DNA from: a bacterium
GTDB taxonomy: Bacteria > Patescibacteriota > Patescibacteriia > Patescibacteriales > GWC2-42-12
Reading direction: 5' to 3'
Assembly: GCA_030650415.1 (NCBI GenBank)
Contig: JAUSEG010000042.1
Span: forward strand, 15,052-79,051
Length of the DNA: 64,000 nt
Below, in pieces: positions 33,139 to 33,538 of this stretch. The translations under genes were made by a program, and so were the position numbers. The notes beneath the pieces were generated by a model that ran no database searches, was not told where the DNA came from, and was given only the letters and a program-made list of their open reading frames with translations. Every line of letters begins with the position of its first letter. Position 1 is the first letter of the stretch.

Positions 33139-33538
33139 GTCATTGCGGCCTCCGAGCCGCAATCCAGGGGTAATATGTACAAATTATATTTCATTAAATA
33201 AATCTCGCCAAACAAAATTATTTTTTTCAATTAATTGTATCTTCCAATTTCTTTTCCAATCTTTCAGTTGTTTTTCTCTGCTAATTGCTCCGTAAACATC
33301 GCCATGAACTTCATAATACACTAATTTGCCTACTTTATATTTTTTAGTAAAACCGTCATATGCTCCGCTTCTATGTTTAAAAACTCTATCTGCTAAATTT
33401 GAAGTTATGCCGATATATAATGTGCCGTTTCTTTTACTGGCCAAAATATAAACATAATACTGTTTTTCCTCCTTCATATATATTAATATTCTTGTTCTCG
33501 GCTCTTAATCTGGATTGCGGCTCGGAGGCCGCAATGAC
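33139..33538. mobile_element. 400-bp element with perfect 29-bp TIRs carrying a GIY-YIG nuclease gene
   Basis: GTCATTGCGGCCTCCGAGCCGCAATCCAG at 33139-33167 has its exact reverse complement at 33510-33538. The only ORF inside is 33184..33477. Confidence 0.7.
33184..33477 (-). CDS. GIY-YIG nuclease family protein (97 aa)
   Basis: YYVYILASKRNGTLYIGITSNLADRVFKHRSG...REKQLKDWKR matches the GIY-YIG/URI-domain motifs. Confidence 0.88.
   Translation of the reverse strand: MKEEKQYYVYILASKRNGTLYIGITSNLADRVFKHRSGAYDGFTKKYKVGKLVYYEVHGDVYGAISREKQLKDWKRNWKIQLIEKNNFVWRDLFNEI

Follow-up and report, generated by a model that had tools for sequence, protein, structure and literature searches.

The closest described relatives of the system considered here are the Ssn proteins, a family of small nucleases paired with hairpin repeats termed NTS and SRM (Chenal et al. 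2025, Nat Commun, PMC11893778). The NTS is 28 nt long (CGTCATTCCCGCGMAVGCGGGAATCYRG), SRM denotes a broader class that includes NTS variants, and across phyla these repeats go with SsnA, a 94-aa protein with a single GIY-YIG domain (CDD cd10448) (PMC11893778). In this report, we analyse a 64,000-nucleotide stretch of a Patescibacteria contig (GenBank assembly GCA_030650415.1, contig JAUSEG010000042.1, positions 15,052 to 79,051 of the forward strand), hereafter the window, in which a gene for a 97-aa GIY-YIG protein lies between perfect inverted repeats. We conclude that this unit is very probably an Ssn family member bracketed by inverted copies of its cognate SRM/NTS-type hairpin, the two presumably forming a selfish or semi-domesticated pair reminiscent of repetitive extragenic palindromes (REPs) and their associated RAYT transposases.

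The biochemistry of the family is known from four purified Ssn homologs, which bind the hairpin only as single-stranded DNA (ssDNA), with cleavage a few nucleotides to its 5′ side; no activity on double-stranded DNA (dsDNA) was found for four family members (PMC11893778). The three nucleotides preceding the stem weigh most in cutting and the C following the stem most in binding, and the activity of Neisseria meningitidis SsnA is abolished when the stem sequence is changed, even though the hairpin is kept (PMC11893778). In the same species, SsnA lowers transformation by NTS-bearing DNA, and knockout of ssnA results in a ~5-fold rise (PMC11893778). The NTS-ssnA-NTS arrangement has been likened to an insertion sequence (IS) and to REP/RAYT systems, and its domestication has been proposed, with mobility left undemonstrated; in the underlying survey, which was based on RefSeq reference genomes and whose main text makes no mention of Patescibacteria, ssn is present in 81% of the genomes whose SRM copies number above 200 (PMC11893778). 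We found no follow-up on Ssn mobility in the literature, and nothing relevant on GIY-YIG proteins in connection with miniature inverted-repeat transposable elements (MITEs), REPIN or REP.

The gene at the centre of the unit (33184-33477, minus strand) encodes a protein in which the Pfam GIY-YIG domain (PF01541, E=6e-17) spans residues 6-80, with no other family match. A tblastn search of a plasmid collection yielded matches (57.6% identity, E=3e-29) to two N. gonorrhoeae chromosomes included in it; this E value is below the 1e-10 used as the criterion for SsnA homology (PMC11893778). The gonococcal open reading frame (ORF) at this match is 94 aa long, and its Y6, Y17 and E64 are the positions at which the 94-aa SsnA of N. 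meningitidis was mutated (PMC11893778). Aligned with this SsnA ortholog, the window protein is 58% identical, gapless over 92 residues (E=7e-41), and places its Y10, Y21 and E68 opposite these three residues. NCBIfam gave no family-level match, its group I intron endonuclease model reaching 16 bits with a cut-off of 56, and among PDB sequences no Ssn structure was found, the sole match being the distantly related UPF0213 protein BH0048 (1zg2, E=0.003). From its sequence, we assign the product of 33184-33477 to the Ssn family as a putative member whose hairpin is a variant. Because the Ssn family and its partnership with the hairpin were already published in 2025, the core finding amounts to a rediscovery. 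The original prediction, made from the DNA alone, had announced an undescribed system, and this claim falls away: the link between gene and hairpin, the hairpin-specific cleavage of ssDNA and the IS-like and REP/RAYT-like reading are all in the earlier paper (PMC11893778).

The architecture of the unit is much as it had first been described, namely a lone 97-aa GIY-YIG ORF between 29-nt exact reverse-complement arms, set between two large related genes. The inverted repeat in fact reaches 31 nt, with a left arm at 33137-33167 (plus strand, 3′ of the gene stop) and a right arm at 33510-33540 (minus strand, 5′ of the gene start) that is its exact reverse complement; the arms are 100% complementary and 342 nt apart, and we calculate that chance alone would yield ~6e-12 perfect 31-nt inverted pairs within 400 bp per 64 kb. 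Each arm alone is a hairpin of the form GTC-ATTGCGGC-ctccga-GCCGCAAT-CCAG, with an 8-bp stem and a 6-nt loop. The left arm in full is TT-GTC-ATTGCGGC-ctccga-GCCGCAAT-CCAG with its GTCAT end pointing outward, and the arm sequence is GTCATTGCGGCCTCCGAGCCGCAATCCAG. No domain-bearing ORF other than 33184-33477 lies within the unit, and the genes on both sides each encode T4SS_pilin and Big_5 domains. The neighbouring 2513-aa ORF truly begins with the ATG at 33128, and the TTG at 33162 given as its start arises artefactually from read-through of the left-arm hairpin. The arms have the layout of an SRM, yet the SRM search pattern in use, HGTCWYN(0-2)YYVSBRHN(0-5)WNVSBRGN(0-2)RNCYNB (PMC11893778), misses both of them, because their stem is GCGGC rather than pyrimidine-led. 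We read them as a probable SRM variant, comparable to the NTSvar of PMC11893778.

The association between gene and hairpin extends far beyond this locus. The window protein has more than 6000 homologs (E ≤1e-5), ~60-65% identical across phyla that include Proteobacteria, Planctomycetota, Chloroflexota, Ignavibacteria, Nitrospirota and Patescibacteria, among others. Eighty genome loci were picked by protein similarity alone. The best inverted repeat between the flanks scored at least 14 in 48 of 76 loci, compared with none in shuffles, and was nearly always the GTCAT hairpin. A hairpin detector found inward-facing GTCAT arms on both sides in 56 of 78 loci, one arm in 18 and none in 4, in agreement with the earlier expectation that GIY-YIG homologs are systematically flanked by such repeats, here in many phyla. 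The median spacing is 25 nt between the end of the upstream arm and the gene, and 18.5 nt between the gene and the beginning of the downstream arm. Within loci, both arms share an identical 7-nt stem in 29 of 58 cases (9.6 expected; maximum 18 in 2000 permutations). In a covariation analysis whose arms were extracted by the anchors GTC...CCA[GT] only, 97.7% of cells were paired and compensatory changes were present at seven of the eight pairs, a level that was not approached in any of 500 shuffles or in any slid register; the hairpin is selected. The ATTGCGG stem is found in the window and in the three closest homolog loci (L081, L082 and L084, 81-84% identity), and in none of 80 more distant loci. 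In each of these three relatives the two arms differ from each other, while those of the window are identical, suggesting recent homogenisation or recent copying. In L081, the upstream arm is tandemly duplicated together with 14 nt of flank. Two Dadabacteria paralogs on one contig are ~80% identical, as judged by eye, from arm to arm, and their local alignment stops at the arms.

Hairpins of this type are also abundant in the window without a gene. When all GTCATT sites were listed and then filtered for hairpin formation, 30 GTCAT-anchored hairpins were obtained, compared with 3-10 in Markov shuffles, most of them arranged as inverted doublets; the published SRM pattern has 10 matches, with ~0.07 expected in shuffles. 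Seventeen of 18 SRM-type hairpins are wholly non-coding, while 85% of the window codes, and GTCAT/ATGAC occurs in 20 of the 41 spacers of at least 60 bp. The canonical arm form in the window is ATTCCCGCG. The commonest arm, GTCATTCCCGCGMAGGCGGGAATCCAG, includes the Neisseria dRS3 core ATTCCC-N8-GGGAAT, which prompted an examination of the literature pairing GIY-YIG with dRS3, through which the Ssn paper was found (PMC11893778). Rfam at its gathering thresholds gave no match anywhere in the window, and neither tRNA nor tmRNA genes were found in it; the hairpins were rejected on these grounds as a described RNA family or an integration-site tRNA.

All four of the ~157-172-bp elements originally reported are present with the end sequences ascribed to them. 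They were also thought to resemble the gene-bearing unit subterminally and to have arisen from it by internal deletion, which proved right for two and wrong for the other two. The first of the pair is a 158-bp doublet (23099-23256, plus strand) between ybeY and dagK, with canonical ATTCCCG arms and an interior made of the ssn 3′ untranslated region (UTR) and degraded last codons; the second is a 157-bp doublet (44739-44895, plus strand) in the der-pth spacer, whose interior can be aligned over its full length to the initial ~98 nt of the ssn-unit interior. With arms excluded, both interiors are collinear with that of the ssn unit from the first base after CCAG, over its first 75-98 nt, which comprise the 16-nt 3′ UTR and approximately the last 27 codons. 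Relative to dinucleotide shuffles, z is 4.7 for 23099-23256 and 7.3 for 44739-44895, with the score reached in 2 of 500 and 0 of 500 shuffles, respectively, and there is no signal in the reverse orientation. Upon scanning both strands of the whole window, the ssn 3′ end was the top match for both elements (48.5 and 58.5), the next-best places scoring 41 and 43.5 over a background of 22-23 (standard deviation 5). Among 84 ssn genes, the best match for both was the window's own gene and the second L082; L084 ranked third for 44739-44895 and sixth for 23099-23256, and the median of the 84 genes lay at background. Because the similarity tracks relatedness to this genome's own ssn gene, the two elements are internal-deletion derivatives of the ssn unit of this lineage. 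They are related to each other (z = 10.7) and therefore count as one lineage. At the protein level, tblastn did not detect the ssn remnants in these two elements; DNA-level alignment alone showed them. Their arms are of the canonical ATTCCCG type, unlike the GCGGC type of the gene, implying that arms and interiors have separate histories.

The other two elements, the 158-bp doublet 2073-2230 and the 172-bp doublet 62785-62956 (both plus strand), resemble each other (z = 5.2) and form a second interior family with no detectable ssn remnant, and were rejected as ssn derivatives. The larger one is nested in an outer GTCATTGCGAGC...GCTCGCAATGAC pair (62748-62981). Decay of ssn is also seen in related loci: L082 has a pseudogene with an internal stop beside a hairpin arm (6613-6869, E=4e-22), and L094 a weak terminal remnant, ...NPRWRDLSQDL, beside an arm (13429-13509, E ~0.06-0.13). 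A nine-residue match in L081 (745-771, ...IWRDLSEDL), noticed by eye, is no better than chance (E=3.8).

Comparison with syntenic relatives provides the evidence on insertion. By its Der (43298-44728), whose closest orthologs are 79-85% identical, the host is a Patescibacterium near Falkowbacteria. Contigs of relatives share the gene order pilin-relA-yqeY-S21-hisS-lepB-lytR-der-pth-dprA-topA. At the ssn site, the spacer between the pilin gene and the giant gene measures 444 bp in the window and 9 bp in L093; L094 and L095 hold other, different inserts there. The der-pth spacer, 199 bp in the window with element 44739-44895, is 15 bp in L087 and 34 bp in L090, and in L086 it is 207 bp with a different doublet of the GTCATTGCGAG type. 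The lytR-der and hisS-lepB spacers (190 and 197 bp) measure 12 and 27 bp in L090, and the 224-bp spacer between ybeY and dagK that contains 23099-23256 corresponds to a 4-bp overlap of the two genes in L093 and L095. In ~34 kb of syntenic sequence, the relative L090/L093 has no SRM pattern match and no GTCATT[CG]C motif, compared with 6 SRM pattern matches and 15 GTCATT[CG]C core motifs in the corresponding block of the window. A separate assembly, L092 (run SRR13727527), encodes a pilin protein 100% identical to that of the window; its contig breaks inside the right arm of the ssn unit (4622-4683), as is typical of assembly failure at a repeat, and since it ends within that arm, it is uninformative on the empty allele. 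The nearest ssn homologs lie in unrelated neighbourhoods, with toxin-antitoxin and Wzy_C genes or with PD-(D/E)XK, Bro-N and UvrD genes. Relative to syntenic relatives, the ssn unit and gene-less short copies are insertions, and the repeats, which could have turned out to be orthologously fixed, are not: both the ssn unit and several short elements have empty counterparts in these relatives. This evidence supports, short of proof, the published idea of mobile NTS-ssn-NTS units.

GIY-YIG enzymes cleave DNA by hydrolysis, without a covalent intermediate, and we know of no strand-transfer step in their chemistry. They do not rejoin DNA, and therefore any copying must be done by host replication or repair. 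That the GIY-YIG protein is the mobilising nuclease, which the original prediction had raised as a possibility, was not borne out and may at most be inferred. By homology to the four proteins characterised in PMC11893778, the window Ssn would bind its hairpin only in ssDNA, recognising the GTCAT flank as well as the C that follows the stem; hydrolysis of the strand would take place a few nucleotides to the 5′ side of the hairpin. The outward GTCAT ends place the predicted nicks just outside the unit, one per strand. Such nicks would be made where hairpins become single-stranded, at replication forks or in transforming DNA entering the cell, and would start host repair or replication that copies, converts or deletes doublets. 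Whether Ssn is causally needed for the spread of doublets seems to us nearly evenly balanced, with a slight lean towards no.

Several points weigh against a spreading, Ssn-driven unit. Given the hydrolytic chemistry, the nuclease alone cannot transpose anything. It may, moreover, be inactive on the abundant ATTCCCG-type doublets, including both deletion derivatives, because the arms of its own gene differ from theirs and a change of stem abolishes the activity of N. meningitidis SsnA (PMC11893778). The geometry that places nicks outside the unit is common (56 of 78 loci), not universal: N. gonorrhoeae (L176, arms at 264-291 and 685-712) and the Dadabacteria paralogs L052 and L071 have the opposite orientation, with GTCAT beside the gene, so that the predicted cuts fall between arm and gene. 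On the comparative side, the relatives are just 79-85% identical in Der, and any one site may, taken by itself, record loss in the relatives rather than gain in the window. No target-site duplication or nucleotide-exact junction was recognised between filled and empty spacers, which are too diverged.

It is also conceivable, if rather unlikely in our judgement, that Ssn and its hairpins are a domesticated host system that serves the cell, for example by cutting incoming transforming ssDNA at marked sites and thereby limiting or shaping recombination, as proposed for Neisseria, the spread of the repeats being due to ordinary recombination or to a former mobility that has since died out. The ~5-fold rise in transformation by NTS-bearing DNA in the N. 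meningitidis ssnA knockout (PMC11893778) speaks for this account, as does the near confinement of the hairpins to spacers. The window also encodes DprA (46262-47353), which makes uptake and processing of ssDNA plausible in this organism and keeps the transformation-control model of PMC11893778 viable here. A maintained host function fits less well with the absence of the gene from the orthologous site of a syntenic relative that has no repeats in ~34 kb, with the unrelated neighbourhoods of the nearest homologs, with ~60% identity across phyla, which points to horizontal spread, or with pseudogenes and deletion derivatives, which indicate turnover. This account and that of a REP/RAYT-like pair are compatible.

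Quite improbable, in our view, is a passenger model in which the doublets are moved in trans by an unrelated enzyme, such as a REP-associated or IS200/IS605-type HUH transposase, and ssn rides along or exploits the hairpins. This model would supply the strand transfer absent from GIY-YIG chemistry and would accommodate the many doublets whose interiors are unrelated to ssn (2073-2230, 62785-62956 and the GTCATTGCGAG-type elements), and our view of the genome is limited to 64 kb. Yet among the ~48 ORFs scanned (of 49 predicted window genes), none matched a transposase or integrase family, Y1 transposases included, and none was seen among the called genes adjoining the homologs examined. The model also leaves aside the link of gene and hairpin in 72% of loci, the covariation of arms within loci and with protein clade, and the recognition of exactly such a hairpin by Ssn (PMC11893778). 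The earlier alternative of a free-standing homing endonuclease, in which the protein would cut the double-stranded hairpin repeat and the gene be copied in by double-strand-break repair, can appeal to the existence of GIY-YIG homing endonucleases, to the location of the gene inside its own target repeat and to a perfect arm identity suggestive of recent conversion, but is very improbable given that the protein is no more than a 97-aa catalytic domain lacking any DNA-binding module, that four family members are inactive on dsDNA (PMC11893778), and that the predicted cut falls outside the unit, which leaves one side of the break without homology to donor copies. The reading of the unit as an Ssn gene bracketed by its cognate hairpins is the one retained below.

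The remaining short elements agree with the earlier observation that smaller members fill many spacers. A compact 68-bp doublet of two canonical SRM hairpins adjoins hisS (39038-39105). Between hisS and lepB, a composite element (40541-40706) consists of an outer GTCATTGCGAG-type pair around a 78-bp SRM doublet (40604-40681), which forms one family with another 78-bp SRM doublet at 60245-60322. A composite GTCATTGCGAG-type doublet (43114-43279) fills the lytR-der spacer; a 201-bp doublet of the same type (47363-47563) has an interior that resembles, by eye, the lytR-der spacer element of relative L086. Further downstream, an outer GTCATTGCGAG pair (59082-59292) encloses an SRM doublet (59132-59241), and an 89-bp doublet (59859-59947) is composed of two long-loop GTCATTCC hairpins. 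The GTCATTGCGAG pairs represent a second class of doublet, with ends GTCATTGCGAG...CTCGCAATGAC, found at 40541-40706, 43114-43279, 47363-47563, 59082-59292 and 62748-62981 as well as in L086 spacers; they often surround SRM doublets, giving rise to nested mosaics. A lone right end, CTCGCAATGAC, comes after element 44739-44895. An AT-rich repeat, GTCATTTTGCATTTTGAGATTTATATTT, adjoins element 23099-23256 (23271-23300), and in relative L088 several spacers are filled by GTCATTTTGCATTTTGAGATTTATATTT-like sequence instead of GC-rich hairpins.

Two further GIY-YIG genes are present in the window, and the three had been presented as divergent. All three exist, but they belong to different subfamilies and are not divergent copies of one system. 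The third gene, on the minus strand at 6454-6711, encodes a protein of the UPF0213/BH0048 type (PDB 1zg2-like); in the region 6343-6806, it is flanked by two GTCAT hairpins in the same rather than inverted orientation, and the 117-aa ORF listed for it has a false N-terminus, MDSSFACQQAGSPPAGGGRNDKN..., from reading through the upstream hairpin. The second gene (56728-56983, minus strand) encodes an 84-aa protein (Pfam GIY-YIG, E=1e-15) that is 33-36% identical to Ssn and lacks the Ssn C-terminal extension. A single diverging family was rejected in view of the UPF0213/BH0048-like character of the former, and of the missing extension and different repeat of the latter.

The 84-aa gene has a repeat partner of its own. 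Its unit (56725-57020) is bounded by a 19-nt inverted repeat, TTTTCACCCCGTGAAATAA / TTATTTCACGGGGTAAAAA, whose arms are not hairpins by themselves and take the form (TTC)ACCCCGTGAAATAA ... TTATTTCACGGGGT. The motif occurs eight times in the window, with 0.6 expected, including two gene-less doublets at 6099-6157 and ~58252-58347. In 37 of 61 metagenomic homolog loci (second-subfamily loci L096-L168), the same repeat flanks an 84-aa-type gene, with arms changing in step, and in shuffles it does so in 0 of 61. One arm precedes the ATG by 25-45 nt, and the other overlaps with the final 10-12 nt of the ORF. As far as we can tell, this association lies outside the coverage of the Ssn paper. In the window, the unit abuts a gene for a stand-alone LigD 3′-phosphoesterase domain protein (56276-56731, 151 aa, E=4e-41), whose start codon region is overlapped by the left arm. 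To its right lie nested inverted pairs, 57015-57029 / 57201-57215 and an 18-nt perfect pair 57035-57052 / 57175-57192, which together form a ~200-bp palindromic element (57015-57215). Elsewhere, the stretch ~7500-12700 has a GC content of 32-35%, compared with ~42% in the rest, and has the appearance of an acquired island; it encodes a methyl-directed restriction enzyme similar to DpnI (10693-11466) and three proteins with Bro-N domains.

The window bears on the question of whether NTS-ssn-NTS units are, or were, mobile and how their hairpins multiply, and contributes comparative evidence in the form of a clean empty site for the gene-bearing unit, several for gene-less doublets, and doublets that keep the ssn 3′ end. 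It also adds Patescibacteria to the range of the Ssn family, and because the stem variant found here escapes the published pattern, pattern-based surveys will undercount such systems. Were the nuclease causal, a transposition-like process would be driven by a bare 97-aa hydrolase, and a stock of paired nuclease and hairpin specificities would be at hand for ssDNA tools. We put forward tentatively, and with more doubt than belief, that Ssn-hairpin units may be autonomous elements of a new kind, in which a hairpin-guided ssDNA nickase uses host copying and spawns MITE-like derivatives, and that the 84-aa subfamily may act alike; if this were true, a broad class of minimal GIY-YIG elements would be shaping the intergenic DNA of small genomes.

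In relation to known systems, the unit has inverted ends, as do classical terminal-inverted-repeat transposons and their MITEs, with no target-site duplication recognised in the diverged spacers; for 23099-23256 and 44739-44895 only, it also has short copies formed by internal deletion. Unlike such transposons, it contains no DDE-like strand-transfer transposase, its sole domain-bearing ORF being a 97-aa GIY-YIG hydrolase. The pairing of a GIY-YIG catalytic domain with mobile DNA is also seen in homing endonucleases (I-TevI, Seg proteins) and Penelope-like elements, which, in contrast, have their own extra DNA-binding or reverse-transcriptase modules, act on duplex DNA and are not flanked by hairpins. 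The "peel and paste" elements of the IS200/IS605 group are similarly small, produce no target duplication and have ends set by ssDNA hairpins; however, these ends are not mutual inverted copies, both cuts are made on one strand, and TnpA forms covalent intermediates. Among Neisseria repeats, dRS3 has the core that is also found in the canonical window arm GTCATTCCCGCGMAGGCGGGAATCCAG, and the short variable segments between inverted copies are similar to NIME mosaics. Neisseria nevertheless belongs to a different phylum, two window interiors are traceable to ssn, and the ends of Correia elements are unrelated. There are also parallels with the REP/RAYT systems of Proteobacteria (REPINs, BIMEs), in which a single-copy nuclease gene is likewise flanked by inverted short palindromic repeats, the repeat is also dispersed as intergenic inverted doublets and mosaics, and hairpins are recognised in ssDNA; RAYT is an HUH Y1 transposase able to cut and rejoin, whereas the window enzyme is a hydrolytic GIY-YIG protein. 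Closest of all is the Ssn/NTS system, with which the window shares a single-domain GIY-YIG protein of 94-97 aa (58% identity to the gonococcal SsnA ortholog), an IS-like layout with the gene between inverted hairpins that have a GTCAT 5′ flank and an ATCCAG 3′ flank, and many extra intergenic copies, 10 of which fit the published SRM pattern (PMC11893778). It differs in its Patescibacteria host, in the GCGGC stem of its own arms, in GTCAT ends that point outward rather than toward the gene as in Neisseria, and in the empty orthologous sites and ssn-derived deletion derivatives shown here, which are unreported in PMC11893778.

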